DNA from: Candidatus Bathyarchaeota archaeon
Lineage (GTDB): Archaea; Thermoproteota; Bathyarchaeia; Bathyarchaeales; Bathycorpusculaceae
Assembly (NCBI GenBank): GCA_963832745.1
Contig: CAWHVC010000003.1
Location: 256,001 to 320,000 of the forward strand
Direction: 5' to 3'
Length of the DNA: 64,000 nucleotides
Shown here: positions 1,675 to 22,535 of the stretch, piece by piece
How the letters are laid out: every line of letters begins with the position of its first letter
Numbering within the stretch: position 1 is the first letter of the stretch
The notes under the pieces: model-generated
What the model was told of the DNA's origin: nothing
The model's database searches: none
Seen by the model: the letters and a program-made list of their open reading frames with translations, nothing else
Translations under genes and position numbers: made by a program

Positions 1675-2179
1675 CTTTATTACTTACACTATTTTTGGGA
1701 TTACACGATTAGTTCTCTTTCATATTCAACTTTTCACACCTAAACACCCCAACCCCTAACAATCAATACAAAGCCTGCAGCGGCAACCTCAGAGTACAGA
1801 TACTAAAGGGACATGCAAGCCAAAGATTGAAGCGGTAAACTCACCTTTTATCTCTGGGTATCATCAAACGCATAATAAAACCGACACCAAGGTAGTGCTT
1901 CTTAACTCTTAGCGGCACTTTCCTTTGCGGTTGGACCAAAAGGGTAGGCCTTTACTTATTTAGGTGGCTTAGGAAACTGCAAACACTTACTGAGGTAAAC
2001 CACAAGCAGAGCCACCTATTTTTTGATTTACACATAAAGGAGGACTCAGTAAAACGAAACGCCCGCGTTGTTACAGCCCATCTGGCACAGCATGTTTACT
2101 TAAAACATTTATTGATAAACAATAATGCCTATAGCCTGTGTACCCTCAATTTGTATCTTACATAGGAAGATACACGTTA

Positions 2180-3010
2180 ATGAAAAACTTTAAAATAATC
2201 ATAACTTTCATGGCAGTTTTATTAATCGCTTCAATCGGCGCAAACGTCTACTTCGCAAGCTCTATGACAGCGTCAAACAACAACGACACAACCAAACTTG
2301 GGATGGTCTCAGCCCTCTCACAGGTTCAAGTCAATATAAACACGGAACTACAAAAGATCGGCAGCAGTCTCGCCCTCGCTTCACAGCAACTCACTTACAC
2401 GGGCTTAACCGGTGAACAAGCAGATGCAGTACTAAGTGAGTTAGCCTCTAACAGCACCTACATCATCGACGCAGGAACCGAAGACATGAACAACATAATG
2501 GTCGCCGTGCAGCCTCCTGCATGCAACAATGTAATCGGCATAAGCGTCGGCGAACAAACCTGGCTAAACACTAATCCTAACGGTCCCATAAATCCCATGA
2601 TGACTCCAGTTATACCCCTTATAGAAGGCACAACAGGCATAGCAATGGCAGCACCAGTCTTCAACACAGATAAAGAAATGATAGGTACAGTCAGCATCAT
2701 CTTTAACCCTCAAACACTCATCAGCACAGCTGTCGCAAAAGCCCCAGACAACGCCAAATACGAATTCTCAGCTATGCAGACAGACGGTTACTCAATGTAC
2801 GACAGCGAGCCAGAGTACCAGGGCACAAATCTCCTTACAAACACTTCAATACCAGGCTACAGCCTCATCTATAATTCAGTAAGCAACACCGCCAACAGCA
2901 TCTCTGGATACTACCTCTACGACTACCAAGGCACCAATTGGCAATGTTACTGGACAACCATAAACGCTTTCGGTCAAGACTGGCGACTATCAGTTCACCA
3001 CACAGCATAA
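2180..3010 (+). CDS. Membrane-anchored stand-alone Cache (dCache-like) domain protein
   Basis: N-terminal hydrophobic anchor; TPVIPLIEG..GIAMAAPVF..EMIGTVSIIF..MQTDG..YDSEPEYQG-NL pattern; no cytoplasmic output domain; ATG at 2180 preferred. Confidence 0.65.
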   Translation: MKNFKIIITFMAVLLIASIGANVYFASSMTASNNNDTTKLGMVSALSQVQVNINTELQKIGSSLALASQQLTYTGLTGEQADAVLSELASNSTYIIDAGTEDMNNIMVAVQPPACNNVIGISVGEQTWLNTNPNGPINPMMTPVIPLIEGTTGIAMAAPVFNTDKEMIGTVSIIFNPQTLISTAVAKAPDNAKYEFSAMQTDGYSMYDSEPEYQGTNLLTNTSIPGYSLIYNSVSNTANSISGYYLYDYQGTNWQCYWTTINAFGQDWRLSVHHTA

Positions 3011-3127
3011 AACAATCAACTTTTCCTTTTTTGTTAAACCGGCAAGTAACGTCTAGGTTGTTTTATTTTGATTTCCTGCCTAGTTATGCAAGCTGTTTAA
3101 AGTTGAACCAAAACATAGCGCTTTAAT

Positions 3128-3574
3128 TTATGGTTCTACTTTTATGCAGGTTACTTTTATGCCGTTTTTCTTTAGCAACGCAGCCGTTACCCCATCGCCG
3201 GTTACAAATTTACCTTTGAAGGAACCATCAAAGATTTTTCCGCAACCACATGAGGGGCTTCTTTCTGTCAGCAACGCTTCTTTTGCTCCTACAGCCTGAG
3301 CAATCCGCAGCGCCTCATTGGCACCTTTTAGGAATTGGCTGGTTACGTCTTCGCCTTGCATGTTAACGACTTTGGCTTTTCCCGTAAGTACGTCTGCGCC
3401 GGTTCCGCCTTGAATCTCTGCTGGCACCCGAGGCAATGGCAGGCCTCCAAGGATTTCGGGGCAGATTGGGAACAGGTTGCCTTTCTGGAACTCTTTACGT
3501 AATGTGGGGTTTAGCCAGTTTTTGGCTTCAAAATTGCAGTTTACACCGAGTAGGCAAGCGCTGACGAGTTTCAT
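3128..3574 (-). CDS. DUF523 / 2-thiouracil desulfurase-family protein
   Basis: VSACLLG, CPE..GGL..PR, SPSCG and GDGVTA motifs. Confidence 0.9.
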   Translation of the reverse strand: MKLVSACLLGVNCNFEAKNWLNPTLRKEFQKGNLFPICPEILGGLPLPRVPAEIQGGTGADVLTGKAKVVNMQGEDVTSQFLKGANEALRIAQAVGAKEALLTERSPSCGCGKIFDGSFKGKFVTGDGVTAALLKKNGIKVTCIKVEP

Positions 3575-3749
3575 GAGTTTAAACGTTCCGTGGTTTAATG
3601 TAAGATTGCTTTGTTTTTGAAAAAGATATGCTTTGTTGGACAGTTATCTGATTTAAAGGTTGCATAGGTTGAACTTATAGTCAGAGTTCATAACTTATAA
3701 TAGCCAAAAAACCCCAATTAACCAATAATTCTCAACGGAGAAATCGATT

Positions 3750-5180
3750 TTGACAGACCAACCTTCACAAACCACTTTAAACGCCAACATCAAAATAGCA
3801 GGATACCTTGATCGAATTCAGCAACCCGTAATGGCTGTTGATAAAGACTTCAACATACTCTACATAAACCAGTACGGTGCAACATTGCTAAATTCAACAC
3901 CTCAACAACTACAAGGACAAAAATGTTACAGTCAATTCAAAACAGGCGATTGTAATACAGAAAAATGTGCCTGCAAAATCGCCATGCAAGAAAAGAAGGA
4001 AGCTACGTCCAAAACAGTTGCAAATCCGTCAGGCTTAGAATTGCCGATTCAATATACTGGGGCACCCTTGGTTGATGAAAACGGCAACGTAACTGGCGCA
4101 GTTGAAGTTGTAACAAACATTGCAGACTTAAAAAATGCGTTGGACATGATTAATGGAATATTAAAGGCTGCCTCAAGTGCTTCTCAAGAAGTGGAGGGTT
4201 ATGCAACTGAAGTTTTAAGCACCGCAGAAAACGTTGGTACAATGGCAGCTCAAGCCGCTGAAGCATCAGAGAAACTAAGGACCTCTTTAGAGCAGGTGCA
4301 ACAAGCAGCCGAAAATGTTTCCAGTGGAGCGCAGAGCCTTTCGACTCTTGCTCAAAGCACAGCAAGAAACATTGAAGTTCTTACCACAAAAATAACTGAT
4401 GTAGACAGGAAAACAAATGAAGTCAACGTTGTTGTAGCTGAATCAAACAAGTTGGCTAATCAGGTAAAGTCTGGCGGTGAACACGCTTTGTCAGCTTTAG
4501 GCGAAATAAAGAAGGCTTCCTTTGGCGTGCAAAACATTATTTCAGAAGTAAACTCGTCTGTAAACAACGTTGCAAGTTTAGCTGATGATATTTCACAAAT
4601 AGCTGGGCAAGTAAACATGCTTGCACTTAATGCTGCTATTGAAGCTGCAAGAGCAGGAGAAGCAGGACGAGGCTTTGCAGTAGTAGCTGACGCAGTAAAA
4701 CAGTTAGCAGGTCAAGCAGGCAAAGCAGCAAACACAGCAGTACACTCAATCGACGGCATAACCAAATCAGGCAAAAATGCGGCTGAAATGTCAAAAAATG
4801 CTGGCGAAGTAGCAAACAACGGTGACAGCATCGTTAGTCAAACAATAAATGGTTCCCAAAAGGTAGCAGAATCAATGGATAAAATCTTGAATATAACTCA
4901 AAATTTAACTGCTATCGTGCAAGGCAGCGCCAAATCTCTTGAAGACGTAAACCACGCAATAGAACAAGTTGCAAGCGTTTCTGAGGAATCTGCGTCAGCC
5001 GCTGAAGAAACAACCGCCAGCATTGAAGAACAAACTGCAGCCACAGACCAAGTTGCTTCAGTAAGCAAGAAACTGCAGAACGAAGGCGAAAAAGCCATTG
5101 AGATTGCCAGAAAAATAAACGCTTCAATTAAAAAGCTAAACGAGGAACTTTCTAAAGCTGAAGCAATGCAGCTCAACTAA
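3750..5180 (+). CDS. Soluble PAS-domain methyl-accepting chemotaxis protein
   Basis: N-terminal PAS domain; MCP hairpin signature QVNMLALNAAIEAARAGEAGRGFAVVADAVKQLA; no TM segment. Confidence 0.92.
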   Translation: MTDQPSQTTLNANIKIAGYLDRIQQPVMAVDKDFNILYINQYGATLLNSTPQQLQGQKCYSQFKTGDCNTEKCACKIAMQEKKEATSKTVANPSGLELPIQYTGAPLVDENGNVTGAVEVVTNIADLKNALDMINGILKAASSASQEVEGYATEVLSTAENVGTMAAQAAEASEKLRTSLEQVQQAAENVSSGAQSLSTLAQSTARNIEVLTTKITDVDRKTNEVNVVVAESNKLANQVKSGGEHALSALGEIKKASFGVQNIISEVNSSVNNVASLADDISQIAGQVNMLALNAAIEAARAGEAGRGFAVVADAVKQLAGQAGKAANTAVHSIDGITKSGKNAAEMSKNAGEVANNGDSIVSQTINGSQKVAESMDKILNITQNLTAIVQGSAKSLEDVNHAIEQVASVSEESASAAEETTASIEEQTAATDQVASVSKKLQNEGEKAIEIARKINASIKKLNEELSKAEAMQLN

Positions 5181-5305
5181 ATTCAAGTTTCCGCCAACAT
5201 TTTTTATTCCGGTTCCTTTTTTGTCACGAAAGAACCATTATTTTCAAGTTTAGGCGGGACTCTTTTAATTATTAAGCCAAACAACGTTCAATTTAACGTC
5301 TGTTT

Positions 5306-5320
5306 CCGAAACGCTTATAT
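5306..5320 (+). promoter_or_regulatory. BRE + TATA promoter of the aromatic operon (CCGAAACGCTTATAT)
   Basis: Purine-rich BRE followed by TTATAT, about 40 nt upstream of the leader ATG. Confidence 0.55.
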
Positions 5321-5358
5321 TTTCTTGCCTATAACCAATTTCAAGGTTCGAAGCAAAA

Positions 5359-5433
5359 ATGATAAATCTTCACATTAACCCAAAAAGATTTCAAAGCTAC
5401 AGCTTCGAATACTGCTTTTATTATAACTTCTAA
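5359..5433 (+). CDS. Putative Phe/Tyr-rich leader peptide (24 aa, MINLHINPKRFQSYSFEYCFYYNF)
   Basis: ATG 5359 to TAA 5433; 4 Phe + 4 Tyr in the last 14 codons; lies between the promoter and the aromatic operon. Confidence 0.8.
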   Translation: MINLHINPKRFQSYSFEYCFYYNF

Positions 5434-5437
5434 CAGT

Positions 5438-5478
5438 AGCCCAGAACTAACTAAAATTTTAAAGAAATGTTCTGGGCT
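5438..5478 (+). promoter_or_regulatory. 10-bp hairpin AGCCCAGAAC/GTTCTGGGCT, candidate attenuator element
   Basis: Perfect inverted repeat starting 5 nt after the leader stop and ending just before the GGGGGT SD of aspartokinase. Confidence 0.7.
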
Positions 5479-5496
5479 GGCAAAGGGGGTAAAACG

Positions 5497-6741
5497 GTGG
5501 AAAATATAAAATCTGGCAAAAAAATTGTGGTTAAATTTGGCGGTTCAAGCCTTGCTGATCATGAAAAGCTACTGAAAGCTGTAATGGCTGTTGTTTCGGA
5601 AGCTAAACACGGTGTCAAAATCGCTGTTGTAGTTTCAGCTATGGGTAAAACTACTGATGTACTTATGACCACGGCTAAAAATACTTCAAACGGAAAACTA
5701 GCTAAACATGAATTGGATGACATTCTTTCTATGGGTGAACGCACAAGCGTACGCATCTTCGCTACTGCATTGCGGAACAATGGTGTTGACGCCTGCTACT
5801 TTGACCCCATGGAAGACAAGTGGCCAATAATCACTGATGAATCTTTCCAGAACGCTAACCCAATCGTTAAAGAATGCATCAAAAACATCAAAACCTGCGT
5901 TTTGCCGCTGGTTGAGAAAGGAACCATACCAGTAATTGCAGGTTTCGTAGGTAAAACTAAAGAAGGCAAAATTACCACTCTTGGCAGAGGCGGAAGTGAC
6001 ACCACAGCATTTATCCTTGGAGAAGGTATAGGCGCTGACCAAATCGTTCTTGTCACTGACGCGGATGGCATTATGTCAAGCGACCCCAAAATCATTAAGG
6101 CGCCTAAGCTTTTGCCAGAAATCAACGTTAATACCCTTATAGGTTTGGCTGATTCAGGAGCCAAATTTATCCACAGCAAAGCGCTTAAGTATAAACCGAA
6201 GGACATAGATGTTAAAGTTATGAGCAACAAGCATAACGACCTAAGCCAGCCAGGCACCCTAATTAAAGATGCATTAGCGTGGGAACTTGACGCTGAAATT
6301 GCTTATCCAACACCTGTTGCAGAGATAACGGTTATCGGAGAAGGCCTCTCAAGCAACACTAACATCATTACGGAAATGTTTGAAAAAGTCAGGCAGCAAA
6401 CTACACTGCTTGGCATGTCCATGAACTCAAATTCAATAATATTCTACGTAGCTCAAGAAAACAATATCGTGGAACTTTTCAACCAAATTCACCAAATCAC
6501 TATTGACAACAAAGAAACCATTGCAATGGCAGTCAAAAAAGACTTAGCTTTCATCCAAACCAGTGGTGTCGGTCTTGAAGAAACACGCGGTATCATCGGA
6601 AAAATCAGCGAAGACCTAAGACTTGCGGGCATCAACATTTCAGGCATCTTAACTATCACTTCCAGCATTTTACTGTTTGTAGATTGGAGCGAAAAAGAAA
6701 AAGCTCTAAAGCTCATTAAGACCTCATTAAAAACACACTAG
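5497..6741 (+). CDS. lysC: Aspartate kinase
   Basis: VVKFGGSS, VVVSAMG, TTLGRGGSDTTA and C-terminal ACT domains; GTG at 5497 follows SD GGGGGT (the track ATG 5467 overlaps the hairpin). Confidence 0.92.
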   Translation: MENIKSGKKIVVKFGGSSLADHEKLLKAVMAVVSEAKHGVKIAVVVSAMGKTTDVLMTTAKNTSNGKLAKHELDDILSMGERTSVRIFATALRNNGVDACYFDPMEDKWPIITDESFQNANPIVKECIKNIKTCVLPLVEKGTIPVIAGFVGKTKEGKITTLGRGGSDTTAFILGEGIGADQIVLVTDADGIMSSDPKIIKAPKLLPEINVNTLIGLADSGAKFIHSKALKYKPKDIDVKVMSNKHNDLSQPGTLIKDALAWELDAEIAYPTPVAEITVIGEGLSSNTNIITEMFEKVRQQTTLLGMSMNSNSIIFYVAQENNIVELFNQIHQITIDNKETIAMAVKKDLAFIQTSGVGLEETRGIIGKISEDLRLAGINISGILTITSSILLFVDWSEKEKALKLIKTSLKTH

Positions 6742-6745
6742 AGAG

Positions 6746-7546
6746 ATGGGATACTTGAATCAAGGCAAAACCAGGCGAATGAAACGAATCTTCCAGCAAG
6801 ATAACCGTACAGTAATTGTCCCAATGGACCACGGCGTAACCATCGGCCCAATCCAAGGCATCACCAACATGCAGCAAACAATAAACCAACTCGTTAAAGG
6901 TGGTGTTGACGCGGTTCTTGTTCACAAAGGCATCGCCAAAACTGTCGATACAACCGGCACCGGCTTAATCGTTATGCTCAGCGGCATGTCAAACCTTAGC
7001 CCAAACATAAACAATAAAGTTCAAGTCTGCAGCGTACAGGAAGCTATACGAATCGGCGCCGACGCAGTTTCCGTTCACGTTAACGTAGGTGCGCAAGATG
7101 AAGATAAAATGCTGCATAACTTGGGCAAAGTAGCTGAAGAATGCGACAGCTTTGGCATTCCTCTTCTTGCCATGATGTACCCGCGGGGACCAAGAATCGC
7201 AAATGAGCATGCACTTGAAGTAGTAGCCCACGCAGCCCGTATAGGTGCAGAACTCGGCGCAGATGTAATCAAAACTAACTACACGGGCACAATCGAATCA
7301 TTTAAGCAGGTTACTGAAAGTTGTCCAGCCCCAGTTCTAATCGCTGGTGGACCAAAATGCAAGTCCGTAGAGGAAATCTTGCAAACGACAAGTGACTCAA
7401 TCAAAGCAGGTGCAGCTGGACTCTCAATTGGACGCAATGTGTTTCAATGCGAAAATCAAGCATTAATCGTGAAGGCGCTCTCAGCTATCGTGCATAAAGG
7501 CGCATCTGTTGAGCAAGCCCAAAAAATTCTTGGTGAAAAACTTTGA
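6746..7546 (+). CDS. 2-amino-3,7-dideoxy-D-threo-hept-6-ulosonate (ADH) synthase, DhnA-type aldolase
   Basis: IVPMDHG, AMMYPRG, ELGADVIKT, AGGPK and IGRNVFQ; adjacent to DHQ synthase II. Confidence 0.92.
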   Translation: MGYLNQGKTRRMKRIFQQDNRTVIVPMDHGVTIGPIQGITNMQQTINQLVKGGVDAVLVHKGIAKTVDTTGTGLIVMLSGMSNLSPNINNKVQVCSVQEAIRIGADAVSVHVNVGAQDEDKMLHNLGKVAEECDSFGIPLLAMMYPRGPRIANEHALEVVAHAARIGAELGADVIKTNYTGTIESFKQVTESCPAPVLIAGGPKCKSVEEILQTTSDSIKAGAAGLSIGRNVFQCENQALIVKALSAIVHKGASVEQAQKILGEKL

Positions 7547-8556
7547 AAGAGCTCTGGATAGAAACAGGTAAGATAGATGCTTTATCCAACCTCATAAAGA
7601 AGTACTGTGATGTTGTAGTTGAAGGCGACAAAGCTTCTTTTTTGGCTACAATACAAGAACAAACCGTTTTGTCCCCAACTGTTGAGTCTTTCGAGGAATT
7701 AGATGTTAAAGGCAAAGTTCTACGTATCTGCATAAGCGATAAGACAACTGAAAACTTGATTGTTAAAGCCGCAGAAAAAGGCGCAAGTTACATACTTATC
7801 AGCACCGCAAACTGGCGAGTTATTCCACTAGAGAATCTCATTGCCCGCATTAAGGGTAAAAGCAAACTTATCGCTGAAGTAACCAACGCTGAAGAGGCAA
7901 AAGTTGCACTTGAAACCTTGGAACTTGGCACCGACGGCGTGCTGCTAAAAACTTCTGACCCAGATGAGGTCTTAAAAACCGTTGTAGTTGTTAAGCCTGA
8001 AGCTTTGAAACTTGAAATGGCGGTTGCCAAAATCATTTCTACTAAGCCCATAAGCAATGGTGCACGCGTTTGTGTTGATACCTGCGATTTGATGATTCAG
8101 GGCGAGGGTATGCTGGTTGGCAGTCAAAGTGCGGGATTGTTTTTGGTGGAAGCTGAAGTTAACGAGAACCCGTATGTTGCGTCGCGTCCTTTCCGTGTTA
8201 ACGCTGGTTCCTGTTCAATGTACACATTGGGCAACCTCCAAACTACGCGGTACCTTCAAGAATTTAAGGCAGGCGACGAAGTGGTCATTGTTAATCGTGA
8301 GGGTAAAACACGCAGGGGAAATGTGGGTAGAATAAAAATTGAAATCCGCCCCTTAATCCTCGTGGAAGCGCTGGTTGAAGGTAAACTAATCAAAACTATT
8401 CTGCAGAACGCTGAAACTATCCGTGTGGTTACTCCTAAATCGTCTAAACCAGTCACCGAACTTAAAGAGGGCGACGAAGTCATAGTCCACTTAGCAGCAA
8501 AAGGGGGCAGGCACTTCGGCGTCAGCGTACCCGACGAAACGGTGATTGAAAAGTGA
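7543..8556 (+). CDS. 3-dehydroquinate synthase II (archaeal type)
   Basis: WRVIPLENLIA, RVCVDTC, RPFRVNAG, LQNAETIR and GRHFG. Confidence 0.95.
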   Translation: MKELWIETGKIDALSNLIKKYCDVVVEGDKASFLATIQEQTVLSPTVESFEELDVKGKVLRICISDKTTENLIVKAAEKGASYILISTANWRVIPLENLIARIKGKSKLIAEVTNAEEAKVALETLELGTDGVLLKTSDPDEVLKTVVVVKPEALKLEMAVAKIISTKPISNGARVCVDTCDLMIQGEGMLVGSQSAGLFLVEAEVNENPYVASRPFRVNAGSCSMYTLGNLQTTRYLQEFKAGDEVVIVNREGKTRRGNVGRIKIEIRPLILVEALVEGKLIKTILQNAETIRVVTPKSSKPVTELKEGDEVIVHLAAKGGRHFGVSVPDETVIEK

Positions 8557-9233
8557 CCCCCAAAATTTGCGTGTCCATAAAACCCAAAACCACAATTGAA
8601 GCATGTAGCCTAATCAAGAAAGCTGAAAACGCAAAAGCCGACTTCATTGAGGTCCGCTTTGACAACCTAGAGGAAACCCGCAGGTTTGAAGAAATTTCAA
8701 GCGCAACAAAAATCCCGCTTATTGCCGCAAATAAGCTGCCAAGCGAAGGCGGCAACTTTTCAGGCACCCACAATCAACGTTGGGAAACTTTGGTTTACGC
8801 TGCAAAAAGCGGTTTCCAATATGTCGATTTGGATCTAACAAACCTCAAGCTAAAAGAGAACATTATAGACTTGAAAGAGTTGGGGGTTAAAACTATTGTT
8901 TCATTCCACAGGTTTAGCGACGCTTTTACAGTTCAAGAAATGCAACGCATTTTAAATGAACAAATAAGTAGCGGGGCAGATGTATGCAAAATCATTGGTA
9001 CCGCAAAACAGGTACAAGATAACCTGACTGCACTTAATTTCGTTTCTGAAAACGCGGTTAAAACCAAGCTTGTGTGCTTCTGCATGGGTGAACAGGGCAG
9101 AATTTCGAGGCTTCTTTCGCCAGTTTTTGGGGCATTCTTCACTTTTGCATCTCTGGAAGAAGGTAGCGAGACGGCACCTGGACAAATAAGCATAAAAGAA
9201 ATGAGGACTGCCTACTCTTTATTGAGGCAGTAA
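8553..9233 (+). CDS. aroD: Type I 3-dehydroquinate dehydratase
   Basis: DFIEVRFD, EGG, IVSFH, ADVCKI, MGEQGRISR and TAPGQ. Confidence 0.93.
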   Translation: MTPKICVSIKPKTTIEACSLIKKAENAKADFIEVRFDNLEETRRFEEISSATKIPLIAANKLPSEGGNFSGTHNQRWETLVYAAKSGFQYVDLDLTNLKLKENIIDLKELGVKTIVSFHRFSDAFTVQEMQRILNEQISSGADVCKIIGTAKQVQDNLTALNFVSENAVKTKLVCFCMGEQGRISRLLSPVFGAFFTFASLEEGSETAPGQISIKEMRTAYSLLRQ

Positions 9234-9235
9234 CC

Positions 9236-10093
9236 TTGGCTATTTCCGCTAAAACACGTGTTTGCGCAGTTATCGGTGACCCAATAGAGCATTCGCTAAG
9301 TCCAACAATTCAAAATGCAGCGTTTGACGCGTTGGGGCTTGATTTTGTTTATACAGCTTTCAGGGTGAAGTCGTCTATGGTTGCAAACGCTTTAGCTGGA
9401 GTGCGGGCTCTTGGCATTATCGGTTTGAATGTTACTATGCCGCATAAAGAAGCAATTATACCGCAGTTAGATGGGATAGATGAAACAGCCCAATTCCTAA
9501 ATTCAGTAAACACCATCCACAACAAGGATGGCAAACTGTTCGGGTACAGCACCGACGGCATAGGCGCCCTTAACGCGCTTAAAGAGAACGGTTCTGACCC
9601 AAAGGGTAAACAAGTGCTTATGCTTGGTTCAGGCGGAGCCGCAAGAGCAATTGCGTACACGCTTGTCCAAGAAACAGATGAACTTGTTGTTCTTAACCGA
9701 ACAGTTTCAGAAGCCAAAGAATTAGCGGAAACATTAAAACAAAAATTTAACAAAAAAGTCATTGCAGATTCACTCTCACCAGAAGTAATAAAAGAAAAAA
9801 TCTGCGATTCGGACATTCTGATTAACGCAACTTCTGTCGGGATGAAACCTAACTTAGCCCAAAGTTTAATTGCACAAAACAGCTTAAAATCTGACTTGAC
9901 CGTAATGGACATAGTTTACAATCCAGTTGAAACAAAACTTGTTATCGAAGCCAAAGCTGCGGGTGCCAAGGTAGTAAGCGGCGTAGAAATGTTAATTTAT
10001 CAAGGTGCTGCATCTTTTGAAATCTGGACTGGAAAGCAGGCTCCGGTCCAGGTTATGAGAAAAGCCGCGTTTGAACAGTTAATTAGGATGTAA
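9236..10093 (+). CDS. aroE: Shikimate dehydrogenase
   Basis: GDPIEHSLSP, NVTMPHK, GSGGAARA, NATSVGM and DIVYNP. Confidence 0.95.
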   Translation: MAISAKTRVCAVIGDPIEHSLSPTIQNAAFDALGLDFVYTAFRVKSSMVANALAGVRALGIIGLNVTMPHKEAIIPQLDGIDETAQFLNSVNTIHNKDGKLFGYSTDGIGALNALKENGSDPKGKQVLMLGSGGAARAIAYTLVQETDELVVLNRTVSEAKELAETLKQKFNKKVIADSLSPEVIKEKICDSDILINATSVGMKPNLAQSLIAQNSLKSDLTVMDIVYNPVETKLVIEAKAAGAKVVSGVEMLIYQGAASFEIWTGKQAPVQVMRKAAFEQLIRM

Positions 10094-10099
10094 ATTGTA

Positions 10100-10972
10100 G
10101 TGAAGGGAGAAGCTTTAGCGTTATCTCATGGTGCAGCAACAATCGTTAACGCCATAGCCACTGGTAAAGGGGCAGCATTCGGCGTTGACTTATACACTAA
10201 AGCACAAGTAAAACTAACCAGTGAACCGCAGGTTTTTGAATCCGAAATTACTTCAGACCAAAAAGAGAATCCAGTTTTGATACAAAAAACCGTTCAAGCA
10301 GTCCTCAAATGCTTCGGCAAAGAGAAAGAGTTTGGCGCAAAAGTCAAAACATGGAGCAACATCCCAATTGCTAGAGGACTTAAAAGCAGTAGCACAGCAG
10401 CCAACGCAGTAGCCCTCGCAACCCTTGGCGCTCTTGGCGAGACGCTGGAGGATTTGGAAACTGTAAAGCTGGGTGTACAGGCAGCTTTTGAGGCAAAGGT
10501 TACGGTTACAGGCGCTTTTGATGATGCTTGTGCCTCATTCTTTGGAGGCTTGGTAGTTACAGATAACCTGAACTGCAAACTTGTCAAGCAAGAAACCTTG
10601 ACTGAGGACTATGTAGTTCTGTTTCAGGTGCCCCCCAAAAAAGCCTACACCGTAAACACTGACATCAGCAAGCTTGCAGCGCTTAAGCCGCAGATTGAAG
10701 CAGCATACGACATGACACTGAAAGGTCTCCATTGGGAAGCTTTAACACTTAACGGATTAAGCTACTCGGCTGCTCTTGGTTTTAACTGCAAAGTCGCAGT
10801 TGACGCTTTAGCTGCGGGTGCACGGGCAGCAGGCTTGTGCGGTAAAGGACCAACAATCACTGCCGTCGTCTCCAAAGACCGCATTGAGCAAGTTAGGGCT
10901 GCTTGGCAGGATTATGAAGGGGAAATTTTACAAGCAAGTTTAAACCATGACAAAGCTAAGGTACTCGTATAA
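10100..10972 (+). CDS. aroK: Archaeal (GHMP-family) shikimate kinase
   Basis: TIVNAIATGKGAA, IPIARGLKSSS and VTGAFDDA. Confidence 0.93.
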   Translation: MKGEALALSHGAATIVNAIATGKGAAFGVDLYTKAQVKLTSEPQVFESEITSDQKENPVLIQKTVQAVLKCFGKEKEFGAKVKTWSNIPIARGLKSSSTAANAVALATLGALGETLEDLETVKLGVQAAFEAKVTVTGAFDDACASFFGGLVVTDNLNCKLVKQETLTEDYVVLFQVPPKKAYTVNTDISKLAALKPQIEAAYDMTLKGLHWEALTLNGLSYSAALGFNCKVAVDALAAGARAAGLCGKGPTITAVVSKDRIEQVRAAWQDYEGEILQASLNHDKAKVLV

Positions 10973-12276
10973 TGGTCACCGTAACCGTTAAACCCACAAG
11001 CAAACTTCAAGGCACCCTTTGCGCGCCTTCGTCAAAATCTTACACACAACGTATGCTTATAGCAGCGGCGCTTTCACAAGGTACAGGAAAAGTTTCAAAC
11101 CCGCTTTTGTCAGAAGACACTGAAGCAACTTTTAGGGCTATAACAGCTTTAGGTGCCCAAGTACAAAAAGCAGCAGGTTGCTGGAATGTTCAAGGAGCAG
11201 AAGAGCTCAAAGCAGCCAGCGACTTAATTGATGTAGGCGAATCAGGTGCAACCTTGCGGTTTATGATTCCCATCGCGGCACTGGCGTCTGGGCGTTCAGC
11301 GTTTCTGTTGTCGAGTTCTTTGGAAAAAAGGCCAATTGAGCCGCTTCTTTCCAGCCTAAAACAGCTTGGAGTTAACGCTTATCATAAACAGATTGGGGAC
11401 TTTCCAGTAATCGTGGTGGAAGGGAGCGGCTTAGCTGGAGGAAGAACCAGTATCTCAGGTGATGTCAGTAGCCAATTTATCAGCGGCTTAATGTTTGCTT
11501 GCCCAATGGCTAAGGCTGACACGGAGATAACTGTTACAACACCATTAGAATCCAAAGATTACGTAAAAATGACCCAAGAAGTGCTTGCCCAACATCACGT
11601 TGAAGTGCAAATCAGCGACGATTTCCGCCACATCCACATTCCGGGGAGGCAGATTTTCAAGCAGGTTAACTGCAAAGTACCCGGCGACTTTTCCTCAGCG
11701 GCTTTTCTTTTGGCAGCAGCAGCCATCACCAAGTCAAATGTAAAAATAAACAACCTGACCTACGAGACAGCGCAGGGTGACCGTGCAATTTTGGGTGTTC
11801 TTAAGCATATGGGTGTTGAAGGCAAAGTCTGCGAGGACAGCGTAGAAATTCAAGGCACTGGCGGCTTGCTTAAGGCGGTTGATATTGACGCAAAGAATAT
11901 TCCTGATCTAGTACCGATTTGCACGGTTTTGGCTTGCTATTCTGATGGCGAGTCGAGGATTTTTAATGCTCAGCGTTTGCGGTTTAAGGAGTCTGACCGT
12001 TTAGCCACTGTCCACGAGGAGTTAACAAGAATGGGAGCTGAAATCAGCATGGACGAATCGAGCTTAACTATCAAGGGACCTTGCAAACTACACGGCGCAA
12101 CCATCAACCCGCACAATGACCACCGAATCGCCATGTCCACTGCCGTAGCCGCGCTTCGAGCCACTGACGAAACCATAATTGAAAACGCTGAGTGCGTCAG
12201 AAAGTCTTATCCAGCATTCTACACTGATTTAGAAGCATTAGGAGCGGAAATCGTTGGCGGGAAACTCGTTAGGTAA
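10972..12276 (+). CDS. aroA: EPSP synthase
   Basis: PSSKSYTQR, GESGATLRF, SSQFISGL, RFKESDR and DHRIAM. Confidence 0.96.
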   Translation: MVTVTVKPTSKLQGTLCAPSSKSYTQRMLIAAALSQGTGKVSNPLLSEDTEATFRAITALGAQVQKAAGCWNVQGAEELKAASDLIDVGESGATLRFMIPIAALASGRSAFLLSSSLEKRPIEPLLSSLKQLGVNAYHKQIGDFPVIVVEGSGLAGGRTSISGDVSSQFISGLMFACPMAKADTEITVTTPLESKDYVKMTQEVLAQHHVEVQISDDFRHIHIPGRQIFKQVNCKVPGDFSSAAFLLAAAAITKSNVKINNLTYETAQGDRAILGVLKHMGVEGKVCEDSVEIQGTGGLLKAVDIDAKNIPDLVPICTVLACYSDGESRIFNAQRLRFKESDRLATVHEELTRMGAEISMDESSLTIKGPCKLHGATINPHNDHRIAMSTAVAALRATDETIIENAECVRKSYPAFYTDLEALGAEIVGGKLVR

Positions 12277-13357
12277 AGAATTCATTGTAACAACGTTTGG
12301 GGAAAGCCACGGCAAAATCGTCGGCGTATTAATCGATGGCTGCCCAGCAGGGCTTGCGCTTTCGGAAGAGGATTTTCAGGAAGAACTTGACCGTAGAATC
12401 CCAGCAGAGCCCAAGATTGTTTCAGCCCGAGTCGAAAAAGACACAGCTAAGATTCTTAGCGGAGTGTTTAACGGCAAAACCACAGGTGCCCCCATAGCAA
12501 TTACAGTAGATAATAAAGAAACCAAATCCAGCGATTACGATGACATTAAGGACTTGCCAAGACCTGGGCACTCAGATTACCCAGCCCGCATAAGGTATGG
12601 CGGCTTTAACGATTACCGAGGCGGCGGAAGATTCTCTGGAAGAGTCACAGTTGCTCTCATACTTGCAGGAGTCATAGCTAAGAAATTGCTCGGCAGATAC
12701 AACATTGACGTTTTAGCCTACACAGCGGCAATAGGCAAAATCAAGTCCGAAACCCGATTTAATGCCTTGGAAATTCGCAAAAACCGCAACGCCGCAGCCA
12801 CGCGATGCCCTGATTTGGCGTGTGCTGAGAAAATGGAGGAAGCAATTGTTGCAGCCAGAAATGCTGGCGATAGTCTGGGCGGGATAGTTGAGTGCGCCGT
12901 GCTTAACATGCCTGTGGGAATTGGGGAACCGTTGTTTGACGCGTTGGACGCCGATTTAGCTAAGGCACTGTTTGGAGTTTCCGCAGTTAAAGGTGTCGAG
13001 TTTGGAGCTGGATTTGCGGCAGCGGAAATGTTGGGTTCCCGAAATAACGATGCATTCAGATTAAAGAATGGGAAAGTTGAGGCAGTGACAGATAACGCTG
13101 GTGGCATCTTGGGCGGCATAAGCAGTGGTATGCCAATCACGATGCGGGTAGCAATTAAACCTACACCATCAATTAGCAAGGAGCAGAAAACCGTTAACCT
13201 ATGTACAATGCAAGACACCACGTTAAGCGTAAAAGGCCGACATGACCCATGCATAGTGCCTAAAGCAGTGCCAGCCATTGAATCCGTGGTCGCTTTAACT
13301 TTGGTTGACCATCTGATTCGCGCAGGCTATGTCCCAAAAATCCTCAAGGAGCAGTAA
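12254..13357 (+). CDS. aroC: Chorismate synthase
   Basis: TFGESHG, PRPGHSD, RGGGRFSGR and GRHDPC. Confidence 0.97.
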   Translation: MAGNSLGKEFIVTTFGESHGKIVGVLIDGCPAGLALSEEDFQEELDRRIPAEPKIVSARVEKDTAKILSGVFNGKTTGAPIAITVDNKETKSSDYDDIKDLPRPGHSDYPARIRYGGFNDYRGGGRFSGRVTVALILAGVIAKKLLGRYNIDVLAYTAAIGKIKSETRFNALEIRKNRNAAATRCPDLACAEKMEEAIVAARNAGDSLGGIVECAVLNMPVGIGEPLFDALDADLAKALFGVSAVKGVEFGAGFAAAEMLGSRNNDAFRLKNGKVEAVTDNAGGILGGISSGMPITMRVAIKPTPSISKEQKTVNLCTMQDTTLSVKGRHDPCIVPKAVPAIESVVALTLVDHLIRAGYVPKILKEQ

Positions 13358-13359
13358 AA

Positions 13360-13620
13360 ATGGAAGATTTGCAGACATTGCGTAAACGTGTCGACGAAAT
13401 TGACGAAAAAATTCTAAAAGCATTAAGTGAACGTGTTGAAGTCTGCAGGCAGATTGGCGAAGTTAAAAAGCAGCAGGGTCTGCCGGTGCGTGACCAATCC
13501 AGAGAAACCAAAGTTTACAGTAAAGTCAAAGAGAAAGCGGCCAATTTTCAGTTGGAACCCTCCCAAATTGAGGCGGTTTACCGCGAAATAGTTAATATGT
13601 GCAGTGCAGTTCAAAAATAG
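13360..13620 (+). CDS. Chorismate mutase (AroQ type)
   Basis: LRKRVDEIDEKILKALSER..IGEVK..PVRDQSRE. Confidence 0.93.
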   Translation: MEDLQTLRKRVDEIDEKILKALSERVEVCRQIGEVKKQQGLPVRDQSRETKVYSKVKEKAANFQLEPSQIEAVYREIVNMCSAVQK

Positions 13621-13651
13621 AAAGTAACTCTTAACGGAGAGTCATCTCACC

Positions 13652-14731
13652 TTGTTGTATGAAATAAATGAGAAAGCACTCAAACTTGAAAGTGAAGGAA
13701 AAAAGATAATCCGACTAAACCTCGGCGACCCAGACATGGCTACGCCCCCTGAAATCGTAGAAGCAGCATACGCTTCAATGAAAGCAGGCAAAACCAAGTA
13801 TTCATCATCTTACGGCGAGCTAAAACTACGTCAAAAAATCGCTGAGTTACACGGCGTTAAAGTAGAAAACGTTGTCATAACACCCGGTTCAAAATGGGCT
13901 ATTTTCAGCACCATGTTCTTAACCATGAAGAACGGCGGCAACGTAATCATCCCAACACCATACTGGACAGCTTACGATTTAATCGCAAAAAGCATCGGCG
14001 CTCAAACCAAACTACTTAAAACAGAAATGGAAACAGGCTGGAAAGTTGACTTAGAAAAACTTGAAAACCTAATTGACAATGAAACAAAAATGATTATCCT
14101 CAACAACCCAAACAATCCAACAAGCAAAGTCATGGATGACGAAACCCTTGACGGCATTGTTGAAATCGCCAACAAAAAAGGCGTCACCATACTCTCTGAC
14201 GAGGTTTACGGTGCAATCGCTTTTAAAAAGACCAAAAGCATCCTTGACTACGACAAAGAATGCAAACACATCCTTTCAAACGGGTTCAGTAAAACCTTTA
14301 CCATGACTGGTTGGCGTATCGGCTACATAGTTGCAAACAAAATGCTCGTTGACAAAGTAACCAAACTAAACCAAATCACCTTCAACAACGTACCAGTCTT
14401 TATTCAAGATGCAGCCATGAAAGGCTTAGAACTCCGCGAACGAATTGCAGAAAACATCAAAGCAAAATACAAACAACGTGCAGACCTTGCAAGCAAAAAA
14501 CTTTCAGCGGCAGGCTTCAAATTCACAACGCCAGAAGCACCATTCTATGTGTTTCCCAAACGTGACGGCTTAGACGGCGACAAATTTACGCTAAACCTGC
14601 TTGACAGCGGCGTAGCAGTTGCTCCAGGTTCAAGCTTTGGCGACTACCATGAACATTTCCGCATAAGCTTAACTGCACCAGACGACCAAATAGAAACAGC
14701 ACTAGACAAAATCGGTGAGGCAGCTCAGTAA
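13652..14731 (+). CDS. Class I PLP-dependent (aromatic/aspartate) aminotransferase
   Basis: NNPNNPT, SDEVY and FSKTFTMTGWRIG. Confidence 0.93.
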   Translation: MLYEINEKALKLESEGKKIIRLNLGDPDMATPPEIVEAAYASMKAGKTKYSSSYGELKLRQKIAELHGVKVENVVITPGSKWAIFSTMFLTMKNGGNVIIPTPYWTAYDLIAKSIGAQTKLLKTEMETGWKVDLEKLENLIDNETKMIILNNPNNPTSKVMDDETLDGIVEIANKKGVTILSDEVYGAIAFKKTKSILDYDKECKHILSNGFSKTFTMTGWRIGYIVANKMLVDKVTKLNQITFNNVPVFIQDAAMKGLELRERIAENIKAKYKQRADLASKKLSAAGFKFTTPEAPFYVFPKRDGLDGDKFTLNLLDSGVAVAPGSSFGDYHEHFRISLTAPDDQIETALDKIGEAAQ

Positions 14732-14733
14732 AA

Positions 14734-15609
14734 ATGAGGACAGCCATTCTTGGCGCGGGAAAGATGGGCGTTTGGTTCGCTCGGTTCTGTAAAGGGAAAG
14801 GCGACACCGTGGTCCTTGCTGACCGTAAAGCTGAGAAACTGGCTAAACTCCGAACTGAGTTGCAAGTTGAAACAACCACAGATTTTGTTGAAGCAGTAAA
14901 GGGCGCCGATAACGTCCTAATCTGCACTTCCATATCTTCTTTTGAAGAAATAATTAAAAAAATCGCTCCTACAACCCATAAGGGGCAAGCAGTCATGGAT
15001 ATTTGCTCTGTTAAAGAGTACCCTGTTAACATTATGCATCAATATATTAAAGACGCAACCGTGCTTGGCACGCACCCAGTTTTTGGTCCAGGCAGCAACG
15101 GCGTAGCCCACAAAGCCTACGTTTTAACGCCTACTAATCCACAAGAAGAAGCCTTCGCGGAACGATACAAACTGTGGCTCGAAAAAGAAGGCGCCAACGT
15201 TTTCATCATGTCACCTCAGAAACATGACGAACTTATGTCTATCATTTTGGGTTTGCCACACTTTGTTGGGTTAGTTGCCTGCGAAACCTTGCTGGAGCAG
15301 TCAAGTTTTGCTGAATCCAAAAAGCTCGCTGGAACCACTTACCGCATGCTTTTAACACTTGCAGAAGCGACCGCACAAGAAACCCCAGACCTTTACGCTA
15401 ACGTACAAACCAAACTGGGAGACTTGGGCAAAATGGAGGAACTCTTCATCGAAAACGCGCAGGCGTGGCTTGATTTGATGAAAAACAAAGATCAGGCGGG
15501 CATTGTTGAGCGCATGGCTAAGCTGCGTGCTAAACTCGACAAAGTAGACGGCGATTACGCGAAAAGCTACCAGACTATGTATAAGATGCTGGAATCCACC
15601 GAGTCTTAA
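14734..15609 (+). CDS. tyrA: Prephenate/arogenate dehydrogenase
   Basis: GAGKMG, DICSVK, GTHPVFGP and HDELMS..GLPH. Confidence 0.93.
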   Translation: MRTAILGAGKMGVWFARFCKGKGDTVVLADRKAEKLAKLRTELQVETTTDFVEAVKGADNVLICTSISSFEEIIKKIAPTTHKGQAVMDICSVKEYPVNIMHQYIKDATVLGTHPVFGPGSNGVAHKAYVLTPTNPQEEAFAERYKLWLEKEGANVFIMSPQKHDELMSIILGLPHFVGLVACETLLEQSSFAESKKLAGTTYRMLLTLAEATAQETPDLYANVQTKLGDLGKMEELFIENAQAWLDLMKNKDQAGIVERMAKLRAKLDKVDGDYAKSYQTMYKMLESTES

Positions 15610-17276: not shown

Positions 17277-18089
17277 TTAGATGATTCTTGGGTAAGACCC
17301 TAGAATCTTAACGAAAGTAGCATATTTTTCCAGCGCTTGCAGGGCTTCTGTGCAGCGTTTTTCTGTTCTGTGTCCTTCGAAGTCGAGGTAAAAATTGTAT
17401 TGCCAAGCGGTGGTTTTGGTTGGTCGGGATTCGATGCGTGTTAGGTTAATGTTTCTGGATGCGAATTCGCCTAGGGCATGATATAGGGTTCCGGGCGCGT
17501 GTTTGGCGCTGAAGATTATGCTGGTTTTGTCGTCTCCTGTTGGAGCTGCGTCTTCTTTTGAAAGTACAAGGAAGCGGGTGTAGTTGGATGGGTTGTCGGC
17601 GATGTCTCGGGCTACGATTTTCATGTTGTAGAGGTCTGCGGCTTTTTCGCTGGCGATTGCTGCTGCGTTAAAGAGAGCTTTTTCTTTTATCATTTTCACG
17701 CTGCCAGCGGTGTCGTAAGCTGGAATGATTTCCCATTTGTGCTTTTCAAGGTAACTGCGGCATTGACCAAGCGCTTGAGGATGGGAATAAACTGATTCGA
17801 TGTCTTCAAACTTTGTTTGAGGATTAGCGATTAAGACATGGGCGAGTTTGACGGCGACTTCTCCGCACACTTTAAGGTCATACGCTAAGAAAAGGTCATA
17901 GTTTTGGTTGACGCTACCCTCGATTGAGTTTTCAATCGGCACAACACCATTGGGAACTGCGCCGGTGTTTACGGATTCAAAGACGTCTCGGAAATCCTTA
18001 CAGGGCACAGGCTCTATTTTGCTGCCGAAAAATTTGTAGACAGCCATTTCGCTGTAAGCGCCAGTTTCTCCCTGATAGGTTACTTTCAT
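17277..18089 (-). CDS. pheA: Prephenate dehydratase
   Basis: YQGETGAYSE, PIENSIEGSV, SHPQALGQC, NYTRF and LTRIESRP (ACT domain). Confidence 0.96.
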   Translation of the reverse strand: MKVTYQGETGAYSEMAVYKFFGSKIEPVPCKDFRDVFESVNTGAVPNGVVPIENSIEGSVNQNYDLFLAYDLKVCGEVAVKLAHVLIANPQTKFEDIESVYSHPQALGQCRSYLEKHKWEIIPAYDTAGSVKMIKEKALFNAAAIASEKAADLYNMKIVARDIADNPSNYTRFLVLSKEDAAPTGDDKTSIIFSAKHAPGTLYHALGEFASRNINLTRIESRPTKTTAWQYNFYLDFEGHRTEKRCTEALQALEKYATFVKILGSYPRII

Positions 18090-19615
18090 TGTTTCTTGAC
18101 CTGATTACGATTCTTTAGTAGGCACTTGTTTATACCGTTTATCATAGCTTCCACGGACGCCATTACGATGTCTTCACGGGCTGCACGGGCGGATACGATG
18201 TTTCCTTTTTCGTCTTCAACTTTTATGATTACTTCAGCCACTGCGTTAGATCCACCAGTGATTGCTTCGAGACGATATTCGCTTAGCTTTATTTTTTCAA
18301 GGTTGCTTGTTAGCTTCTGTATGGCTTTTAGGACGGCGTCTACTGGGCCTACGCCGGTTTCTGCTGCCACGTACTCTTTGCCGTCCAAGGTTAAGCGTAC
18401 GGAAGCGGTTGGGATAACTTTGATGCCGGTTACGACGGCCATGTCGCATAGGTCAACAATTTTTTCTTCACCGAGGACCTCACCCATAACTGCTGAGGTT
18501 AAAGCGATTAAGTCAGCGTCGGTTACCATTTTGCCTTTGTCACCGAGTTCTTTGACGCGTTGCACGATTTCGGTTAATTGTTGCTCGGTTGGGTGGATGC
18601 CAATTTCGTTTAGTTCTGCTTGGATGCCTCTTGTGCCTGCCAGTTTGCCTGCGACGAGTTTGCGGGTTCTTCCGACTAGTTCGGGGCTGATTGGTTCAAA
18701 CGTTAAGGGCTGCTCTGTGACGCCGCGGGTGTGGATGCCTGATTCGTGGGCAAACGCGTTTTCTCCAACAATTGCTTTGTTTACTTGTACTGAGACGCCG
18801 CTTAATGATGCAACCATCCTAGATGTGCTGTACAGTAAACGCGTGTTTACGTTTGTTTTGTACCCGTAAACCACATGCAAGGTTGTTACTACTTCTTCGA
18901 GCGCCGCGTTGCCTGCACGTTCACCGAGCCCGTTGACGGCGACGTGAACTTGGTCTGCGCCTGCTTCAACTGCTGCAAGGCTGTTGGCAACTGCTAAACC
19001 AAAGTCGTTGTGACAGTGAGCGCTAATTGGAACCTTAATGTAACTCTTTAGCTCCTTGAAAAACTCAAAAGTTGTTCTGGGTATCATGCAGCCGACTGTA
19101 TCTGGCGTGTTTAGGCTGTCCATTCCTGCATCTTGGGCTGCCAAGCAGATTTGACGTAGAAAAGACGCTTCGGTGCGGGTGGCATCCATGGGTGAGAATT
19201 CACATTTTACGCCATGCTTCTTAACGTACTGGATTGAATCAACTGCCGCAGATAGGACTTGTTCCGGAGTCATGTTTACAGCGTGTTTCATCTGCACTGG
19301 TGAAGTTGGGATGAATACGTGAATCAAATCTACATTGCATTCTAAGGCGGCGTCGATATCTTTTCTTGTACATCTGGATAAAGCACAAACTTTTGAGTTT
19401 AGGCCTAATTTGGAGATTTCTTTTACGACTTTACGTTCGCCCTCTGAACTACTGGGAAAACCTGCTTCTATAATGTCGACGCCAAGCTTGTTTAGTTGCT
19501 GGGCGATTTCGATTTTATCTTCCAGAGTCAAAGAAACACCGGGGGTTTGTTCCCCGTCACGTAGTGTCGTGTCTAAGATTTTGATAAATCGGGGGTTTTG
19601 AGTCATTGTTTTCAC
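18086..19615 (-). CDS. leuA: 2-isopropylmalate synthase
   Basis: [24 protein letters not shown] and C-terminal regulatory domain; inside the leuCDB operon. Confidence 0.9.
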   Translation of the reverse strand: MKTMTQNPRFIKILDTTLRDGEQTPGVSLTLEDKIEIAQQLNKLGVDIIEAGFPSSSEGERKVVKEISKLGLNSKVCALSRCTRKDIDAALECNVDLIHVFIPTSPVQMKHAVNMTPEQVLSAAVDSIQYVKKHGVKCEFSPMDATRTEASFLRQICLAAQDAGMDSLNTPDTVGCMIPRTTFEFFKELKSYIKVPISAHCHNDFGLAVANSLAAVEAGADQVHVAVNGLGERAGNAALEEVVTTLHVVYGYKTNVNTRLLYSTSRMVASLSGVSVQVNKAIVGENAFAHESGIHTRGVTEQPLTFEPISPELVGRTRKLVAGKLAGTRGIQAELNEIGIHPTEQQLTEIVQRVKELGDKGKMVTDADLIALTSAVMGEVLGEEKIVDLCDMAVVTGIKVIPTASVRLTLDGKEYVAAETGVGPVDAVLKAIQKLTSNLEKIKLSEYRLEAITGGSNAVAEVIIKVEDEKGNIVSARAAREDIVMASVEAMINGINKCLLKNRNQVKKQ

Positions 19616-19619
19616 AAGC

Positions 19620-22413: not shown

Positions 22414-22535
22414 GTTTTTTCTTCTCTTAATATTCTATTTTCCACTAAGCAAATGCGTCTTAAGATTAATCCTCTAAGAGACGTCACTAAAATTTTAAAA
22501 AGGGAAAATTAAGCCTTTCCATTCAGTAAACGCTT

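Follow-up and report, generated by a model that had tools for sequence, protein, structure and literature searches.

Can a translated leader sense the supply of aromatic amino acids in an archaeon? The question is raised by a locus in a 64,000-nucleotide (nt) stretch of DNA from a Candidatus Bathyarchaeota archaeon (GenBank assembly GCA_963832745.1, contig CAWHVC010000003.1, positions 256,001 to 320,000), referred to here at its full length as the window, in which an initial annotation had described a short upstream open reading frame (uORF) rich in Phe and Tyr codons, and a hairpin, between an archaeal promoter and an operon for aromatic amino acid synthesis. Comparison of this leader with its counterparts in related genomes revealed that its anatomy is conserved, that the uORF is constrained in frame, and that its bias toward aromatic codons recurs in other families of Bathyarchaeia. 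We consider it rather probable that the leader is a working ribosome-mediated attenuator in Archaea, conserved across Bathyarchaeia, in which a leader peptide gauges Phe- and Tyr-tRNA charging and a single hairpin abutting the stop codon sets operon expression. The archaeal nature of the host, whose genome measures 3.02 Mb, had been assumed in the initial annotation and was borne out by near-identical relatives that are Bathyarchaeia; the aspartate kinase encoded by the first operon gene is 84-91% identical to those of Candidatus Bathyarchaeia (Bathy-6) and Candidatus Bathycorpusculum terrae.

Anatomy and conservation of the aromatic leader

The uORF (5359..5433, plus strand, as are all leader elements described here) runs from ATG 5359 to TAA 5431-5433, and its 24 sense codons encode MINLHINPKRFQSYSFEYCFYYNF, with eight Phe/Tyr residues in the last 14 codons and no Trp, as had been reported; the aromatic codon tract covers 5389-5430. 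Upstream of it, the B recognition element (BRE) and TATA box that had been placed at 5306-5320 were found there as CCGAAACGCTTATAT, and the presumed promoter element can be read from the sequence as CCGAAACGCTTATATTT over 5306..5322. The transcription start is predicted at 5343..5347 from the usual spacing between an archaeal TATA box and start site, which would leave a 5′ untranslated region of about 12-16 nt. Directly 5′ of the uORF ATG lies GTTCGAAGC (5346..5354), which contains a GGT resembling a Shine-Dalgarno (SD) sequence and forms the 5′ arm of a helix, P1, the 3′ arm of which, GCTTCGAAT (5402..5410), comprises the Ser-Phe-Glu codons together with the initial base of the Tyr codon that follows. 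The uORF is followed by a hairpin, P2 (5438..5478), whose perfect 10-bp stem is present as described, with AGCCCAGAAC (5438-5447) paired to GTTCTGGGCT (5469-5478) around a 21-nt A/U-rich loop that carries a U4 run. A G-run plus T, the SD-like GGGGGT at 5485..5490, comes next as the putative ribosome-binding site of the aspartate kinase gene, ahead of GTG 5497, again as annotated; G-rich motifs stand at the same place in relatives.

A same-genus set was assembled around the aspartate kinase ortholog, which was present in all 36 genomes, and the upstream regions were read in 35 of them (L001-L030, the window among them, and L037-L041). All 35 loci share one order of elements, namely the promoter block, GGTTCGAAGC or a near variant just before the ATG, the uORF, the stem, a G-rich ribosome-binding site and the gene start; this count and those that follow describe spread and not significance, as related genomes are not independent samples. 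The BRE/TATA element was nearly invariant in those same-genus leaders that reach far enough upstream, 29 out of 30, and the distance from TATA to ATG ranged from 39 to 47 nt. Retention of an aromatic-enriched uORF in relatives had been proposed as a check, and a uORF with a Phe/Tyr-rich tail was present at every one of the 35 loci. These uORFs begin with ATG, comprise 24-29 codons, and combine a highly variable first half with a conserved tail of the type S-F-D/E-Y-x-F-Y-Y-x-x-Y/F-F-P. Their stop codons lie 0-8 nt from the stem GCCCAGAAC...GTTCTGGGC or overlap it. For example, an in-frame TAG at 5437-5439, two codons past the TAA of the window, overlaps the P2 stem and is the stop used by L003-L008; the TAA ahead of it was acquired by the window and its nearest relative. 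It is this conservation across relatives, the decisive evidence, that lifts the position and coding bias of the uORF above chance.

Frame constraint was examined in 43 distinct leaders from loci with a kinase identity of at least 67% (L007 and L049 were dropped, the motif used by the script being unmatched in them). Between the ATG and the Phe codon within P1 the spacing was 45, 48 or 51 nt, in every case divisible by 3. Across the variable N-terminal part, which totals 1860 nt in these leaders, no stop codon was found in the uORF frame versus 18 and 37 in the other two frames. Insertions and deletions in the conserved tail were 3 or 6 nt long, and Phe, Tyr, Trp and His were found to replace one another there. 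As judged from the alignments, this pattern of indels, stops and substitutions is that of a translated frame and not of a plain RNA or DNA motif; the uORF is conserved and frame-constrained, and is presumably translated.

The survey was extended beyond the genus by (i) a class-wide search seeded with 3-dehydroquinate (DHQ) synthase II, which gave a match in 101 of 201 genomes, 40 of these loci being fetched; and (ii) further loci from other genera gathered by means of the aspartate kinase. In the resulting 87 upstream regions, duplicates between collections included, an aromatic uORF (at least 7 Phe/Tyr/Trp in the last 14 codons, ending 25-110 nt before the gene) was detected in 63. The same score was reached at all four loci from other genera of the window's family (kinase 62-70% identical) and at 17 of the 38 loci with a kinase identity below 60%, six more of the latter scoring 5-6. 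Tails found outside the genus include ..PFFGRFGYFGY, ..FYSFSYYFYN, ..RFFSWYTKYTTY, MFFDFFYYYFYFE and ..PYFYFFYCYYFFEG. Between families of Bathyarchaeia the nucleotide sequences of the aromatic uORF and hairpin are unrelated. By eye, nearly every aromatic-tailed (type-1) peptide carries an aromatic residue at one of its final 3 codons. When the same procedure was applied to 972 upstream regions of the window's genome as a control, 8 scored at least 7 (0.8%, the window leader included) and 55 at least 5. The aromatic-positive loci span 33-59% GC and use TTT, TTC, TAT and TAC; thus, AT-richness is not the cause of the aromatic bias. No such uORF was found upstream of the kinases of Hadarchaeota, Methanobacterium and Halococcus (5 loci), for which it was not checked whether the genes head aromatic operons.

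These rates also bear on the possibility that the uORF specifies an aromatic micropeptide with a function of its own, or arose by chance from the local composition. Small open reading frames are common, with 24,448 that start with ATG in the window's genome, and 24 of these reach at least 8 Phe/Tyr in 14 codons. However, only aromatic richness and no peptide motif is kept between families, the place of the uORF relative to promoter, hairpin and operon is fixed, and the control rate of 0.8% counts against a chance reading frame, so that this explanation is very hard to credit. That the leader encodes a regulatory peptide of some kind is, in our view, highly likely.

A second type of leader was encountered in other families of Bathyarchaeia, in 11 of the 87 upstream regions and only at low aromatic scores of 0-4 (L051, L142, L143, L150, L151, L153, L154, L155, L157, L162 and L163). 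It has few aromatic codons, with a Phe (TTC) or Tyr (TAC/TAT) codon directly before an SD-like block (GGTGAT, GGTGGT, AGGAGG, AGGGGG or CGGAGG), sometimes in two direct repeats, and its peptide follows the pattern ..(V/I/L)-F-(G/R)-(G/D)-x-(V/I)-Y...

Leader hairpins and the predicted response to aromatic starvation

RNAalifold was run on 30 same-genus leaders and predicted P1 and P2 only. P2 is nearly invariant within the genus, where one two-sided change and several G-U pairs were seen. Its pattern, GCCCAGRRC-N10-30-GYTCTGGGC, was found once in each of 50 of the 61 same-genus genomes and twice in one further genome, in every case at a leader-type locus; this single-copy occurrence speaks against a P2-based regulon. 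The genome with two copies, G260, carries them on two short contigs (77 and 105), which could reflect a duplication or a mixed bin. In the window, the 181-nt leader was predicted to fold with -39.4 kcal/mol (z = -3.23), none of 200 shuffles being as stable. Across families the place of the hairpin is kept while its sequence changes completely: with a search range of -6 to +9, 64 of 69 distinct leaders have a best hairpin that starts no later than the final base of the stop codon (median -18.1 kcal/mol). Compared with dinucleotide shuffles, the hairpin segment gave z <= -2 in 43 of the 45 genus and family leaders and, among 23 leaders from elsewhere, in 14. A median of about 17 nt separates the 3′ end of the hairpin from the estimated gene start, which leaves room for a ribosome-binding site and spacer only.

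The pairing of TTCGAAGC (5347-5354) with GCTTCGAA (5402-5409), noted previously, is present and conserved as P1. Its arms (5346-5354/5402-5410) form a duplex of -13.9 kcal/mol in the window, and every one of the 38 distinct arm pairs from the genus and family could form a duplex of 7-13 bp, with wobble changes. Outside the window's family, P1-like pairing had a mean z of 0.01, with z below -2 in 1 of 23 leaders; P1 is, as far as predicted pairing can tell, confined to that family. Covariation, another of the checks proposed for the stems, was seen as a C-G to U-A change on both sides of P1 in L005 and as the single two-sided change in P2, the arms being otherwise almost invariant; overall, a two-sided change was found in 1 of the 15 pairs predicted by RNAalifold.

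Such invariance would also be expected if the leader were an untranslated element, that is, a structured RNA, a protein-binding site or a DNA operator for a repressor, with the reading frame incidental. The P1 arms contain the palindrome TTCGAA, the arms of both helices vary little, and archaea are known to regulate these pathways through transcription factors (PMC6737238, in part). Against this stand the absence of stops in one frame only, the spacing of 45, 48 or 51 nt and the 3-nt indels, as well as an amino acid bias that is the same across families and a GC range of 33-59% while the underlying nucleotide sequences are unrelated. A conserved RNA is further disfavored by the limitation of P1 to one family and by Rfam, in which a cmscan of 4000-7000 gave three hits, all far below their gathering scores and none a leader family (the best hit overlapping the leader scored 15.7 bits compared with a gathering score of 120.4). 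We regard an untranslated element as quite unlikely; a transcription factor may act in addition to the leader.

For a translated leader, the parts common to all lineages are an aromatic tail that reaches to within about 3 codons of the stop, a hairpin at the stop, and a ribosome-binding site right behind the hairpin. From these parts we propose the following sequence of events. Transcription would start some 12-16 nt 5′ of ATG 5359, and a ribosome would translate the 24-codon uORF, whose eight Phe/Tyr codons among the last 14 reach the stop codon at the foot of P2, with the ribosome-binding site of the aspartate kinase gene directly after P2. When Phe and Tyr are plentiful, the ribosome would terminate and leave, P2 would close, and the operon would be kept low; in the window's family P1 would close as well, over the uORF start region. 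When either amino acid is scarce, the ribosome would linger on the 3′-proximal aromatic codons, its footprint would hold the 5′ arm of P2 open, and the operon would be on. A closed P2 would in this way be the OFF element, most likely by hindering initiation at the adjacent ribosome-binding site, with polar termination following; in lineages that have a U4-U6 run after the hairpin, the closed hairpin may also act as a terminator-type signal. P1 would close once the ribosome has passed the Ser-Phe-Asp codons and stay open while they are occupied, and it may limit reloading of the uORF. A closed P2 as OFF element and a delay on the last aromatic codons were preferred because they are the simplest reading that gives the right sign, with starvation turning the operon on. 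We put at about even chances that the leader is, in just this form, a translated sensor of charged Phe- and Tyr-tRNA that acts by ribosome stalling near the stop and hairpin occlusion.

Several observations weigh against this sequence of events. In the window, the stop codon is placed 4 nt before P2 and not on it. In a footprint model, P2 was partly or wholly lost when the A site was placed at the final or penultimate sense codon; it survived a stall on an aromatic codon more than about 2 codons from the stop, so that the upstream five to seven aromatic codons are not explained by simple occlusion. The ribosome-binding site is located beside P2, not inside it. Pairing of the aromatic codons with the ribosome-binding site of the kinase gene, as a third helix stacked on P2, appeared in the minimum-energy fold of the window and was rejected as unsupported over 71 leaders: the unpaired probability of the SD was 0.33 in the native leaders, rose to 0.46 when the aromatic codons were masked and fell to 0.26 when they were shuffled, and the native value was lower than the shuffled one in only 25 of 71. 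Neither RNAalifold (30 leaders) nor constrained folds gave a conserved mutually exclusive (antiterminator) helix. The absence of a U-tract after the stem, about which the initial annotation had been cautious, holds for the window and its genus, where the only U-run is that in the loop, and this run is itself weak or absent in the nearest clade (L003-L008; missing in L004, L005 and L008). Archaeal terminators are U-tracts bound by aCPSF1/FttA, and hairpins are not thought to be required (PMC8716108, in part), so a bacterial-type hairpin terminator cannot be assumed. Finally, the relatedness of the genomes counted, mentioned above, applies here as well.

Other pairings within the leader were examined. 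The helices GCTAC (5396-5400)/GTAGC (5436-5440) and TACTG (5410-5414)/CAGTA (5434-5438), which had been suggested to compete with P2, are indeed present in the window; they are conserved in only 1-2 of 30 aligned leaders, being confined to the window and its nearest relative, and are regarded as chance. Pairing of the 5′ arm of P1 with an arm of P2 amounted to about five weak pairs by inspection, never formed in constrained folds, and was discarded. A scan of the window for bacterial-type terminators did not flag P2, and the sites were not enriched (23 found, 23.8 expected).

The same sensor could be tied to a different output, in which the ribosome shields U4 tracts, formed by UUU and UAU codons and the U-run of the P2 loop, from aCPSF1/FttA; once a ribosome had terminated normally, the exposed leader would be bound and cleaved, ending transcription or the mRNA. 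U4 tracts are the binding sites of aCPSF1, about two of them being the minimum for efficient binding, with no hairpin needed (PMC8716108, in part). The genus consensus offers CTTTTAT and TATTTTCC, almost invariant at the nucleotide level, in addition to a T5-T7 run in the loop; moreover, 32 of 69 leaders have a T-run of at least 5 within the hairpin. Two T6 runs after the upstream chemotaxis gene (5210-5235) can be counted on the same side. However, shielding gives no reason for a stop codon that touches a strong hairpin, the loop run is lacking in the close relatives listed above, and the leaders of GC-richer genomes have few U4 runs. In addition, FttA acts beside the polymerase (PMC11616081, in part), so a stalled, uncoupled ribosome should favor termination, which is the wrong sign for shielding. 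This output therefore appears unlikely.

Hungry-codon frameshifting was considered as a further output of the same sensor. Here, the ribosome would slip at U-UUU-A type sites, read through the stop codon and P2, and end near the kinase start, so that ribosomes would be delivered by coupling. The +1 frame stays open through P2 and closes no more than 16 nt ahead of the gene start, or only past it, in 34 of 42 same-genus leaders; the -1 frame is open in 31, and at least one of the two in all 42. Six leaders (L007, L016, L018, L020, L022 and L029) have their +1 stop 1 nt beyond the estimated start of the gene, and the U-runs are invariant at the nucleotide level. This openness is not specific to one frame, is partly expected given that the P2 arms have no stops, and comes from a comparison of related, not independent, genomes. 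Moreover, both alternative frames close 10-14 nt past the stop in L031, L032, L050 and L137, and also in others such as L148 and L159; frameshifting is thus not universal, is excluded as a general rule, and is improbable as the output at this locus.

Relation to known leader-peptide and archaeal control systems

Leader-peptide attenuators are textbook bacterial mechanisms, with pheL-pheA and pheM-pheST of enterobacteria and trpL, hisL, thrL and ilvL as examples. Compared with the bacterial pheL system (PMC3082878, in part) and with trpL, the leader described here is alike in having (i) a short reading frame at the 5′ end, here a predicted one, of the operon transcript, with a tail enriched in codons for the end product; (ii) a stable hairpin between the leader reading frame and the first gene; and (iii) presumed stalling on hungry codons. 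The clustering of end-product codons is found in 63 of 87 upstream regions versus 8 of 972 controls. It is unlike them in its archaeal BRE/TATA promoter and host, in its mixed Phe/Tyr (and some Trp) codons, and in the operon, which starts with aspartate kinase, uses the route through 2-amino-3,7-dideoxy-D-threo-hept-6-ulosonate (ADH) synthase and DHQ synthase II, and has no Rfam leader match. In place of the set of 1:2, 2:3 and 3:4 hairpins there is one hairpin, whose base touches the stop codon. The initial annotation had taken the layout to be that of pheL/trpL-type attenuators; this did not hold, as no conserved mutually exclusive structure was found. With two defining features missing, the antiterminator and, in the window's genus, the U-tract terminator, the leader is filed outside the pheL/trpL family as a variant.

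Translational control by stalling in a uORF offers a further likeness. There, with no classical terminator, a ribosome held up in a short uORF alters how accessible the next gene is; the uORF stands at the transcript's 5′ end or close to it, and a hairpin lies beside the next ribosome-binding site. Translational attenuation of the ermC/cat type belongs in this comparison; unlike it, the ribosome-binding site here is beside the hairpin and not within it, and the test for sequestration by the aromatic codons gave it no support. The polycysteine leaderless uORFs of mycobacteria are a comparable case of uORF stalling (bioRxiv 10.1101/834739, in part).

Within archaea, the U-runs in or beside the leader hairpin recall termination by U-tracts and aCPSF1 (FttA), and in 9 of 23 leaders from other families a T4-T6 run can be seen by eye directly after the stem and before the G-run; to our knowledge, no conditional (regulated) use of such termination has been described. 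Aromatic operons are controlled by Tar (TK0271) in Thermococcus kodakarensis and by TrpY in Methanothermobacter (PMC6737238, in part), which share the pathway and purpose but are DNA-binding proteins that act at promoters. As far as the available part of that 2019 source goes, almost no Crenarchaeota have homologs of Tar or TrpY, and a third regulator or mechanism is suspected; the leader could be such a third mechanism in Bathyarchaeia. According to the accessible portion of PMC8448881, archaea had by 2021 provided no known case of attenuation or antitermination. The initial annotation had stated that no established archaeal leader-peptide attenuator was known for this pathway, and a full-text literature search, which did not cover subscription journals and supplementary files, likewise found no published archaeal case. 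In the parts available, the uORF4u paper makes a general statement, without an example, that uORFs act in archaea, and the Methanosarcina Ribo-seq paper gives candidate uORFs without attenuation.

If this interpretation is true, leader-peptide control based on coupling would also be archaeal, in a layout that differs from the three-hairpin design of bacteria and is simpler. The conserved aromatic leader reading frame and its stop-abutting hairpin provide a concrete, mutable cis element for asking whether ribosome position on a leader controls downstream expression in archaea, and the leader is also a handle on links to transcription-translation coupling and to termination by FttA/aCPSF1. There is a gain for annotation as well, as gene callers miss the uORF and tend to extend the first gene to an ATG inside the hairpin.

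The aromatic operon and its surroundings

The claim of an 11-gene aromatic operon was confirmed by Pfam, which assigned 11 genes from 5497 to 15609. The first is the aspartate kinase gene (AA_kinase + ACT; 5497..6741, plus strand), with a GTG start. The open reading frame caller begins it at ATG 5467, which is in frame and falls within the 3′ arm of P2; GTG 5497, which the initial annotation had assumed, is the likely start because an ATG aligns there in all seven of the closest relatives (L002-L008). The ten genes that follow (6746..15609, plus strand) are contiguous or overlapping and, by their Pfam matches, encode the archaeal (ADH synthase/DHQ synthase II) route to chorismate, prephenate and Tyr: the aspartate kinase with its ACT domain is followed by a DeoC-type aldolase (ADH synthase type), DHQ synthase II, type I 3-dehydroquinate dehydratase (DHQase I), shikimate dehydrogenase, a GHMP-type kinase, 5-enolpyruvylshikimate-3-phosphate (EPSP) synthase, chorismate synthase, chorismate mutase, an aminotransferase and prephenate dehydrogenase.

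The presence of aspartate kinase at the head of the operon fits the archaeal route, which consumes aspartate semialdehyde (5497-7546). At all four other Bathyarchaeia loci tested (L137, L141, L148 and L150), an aspartate-semialdehyde dehydrogenase gene stands between the kinase and the ADH-synthase-type aldolase genes; by Pfam, the window operon has none at that place. Prephenate dehydratase (pheA, with an ACT domain) is encoded outside the aromatic operon, as the last gene of an ilvB-ilvN-leuC-leuD-leuB-leuA-type cluster on the minus strand (17277-24760). The anthranilate synthase (Chorismate_bind) match on contig 2 of G000 (196161-196923, minus strand; L123/L124) is split into two pieces in different open frames, which suggests a frameshift or sequencing error near the C-terminus.

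Other leader peptides were sought in the window's genome by scans that were crude and limited to ATG starts. A composition scan of 1794 intergenic small open reading frames gave nothing convincing, and a scan for a uORF plus hairpin gave 69 hits with no amino acid bias. No Trp-rich leader reading frame was found upstream of trpE/anthranilate synthase, nor an Ile/Leu/Val-rich one upstream of ilvB in the cluster of the window.

Just upstream of the leader are two chemotaxis-type sensor genes (2138-5180), one with Cache/HK-GC sensor domains and the other, at 3750-5180, with a PAS domain and a methyl-accepting signaling domain. The stop codon of the latter is followed, within 5181-5240, by the two T6 runs at 5210-5235, with no hairpin; these have the shape expected of an archaeal U-tract terminator and probably part the upstream gene from the leader promoter.

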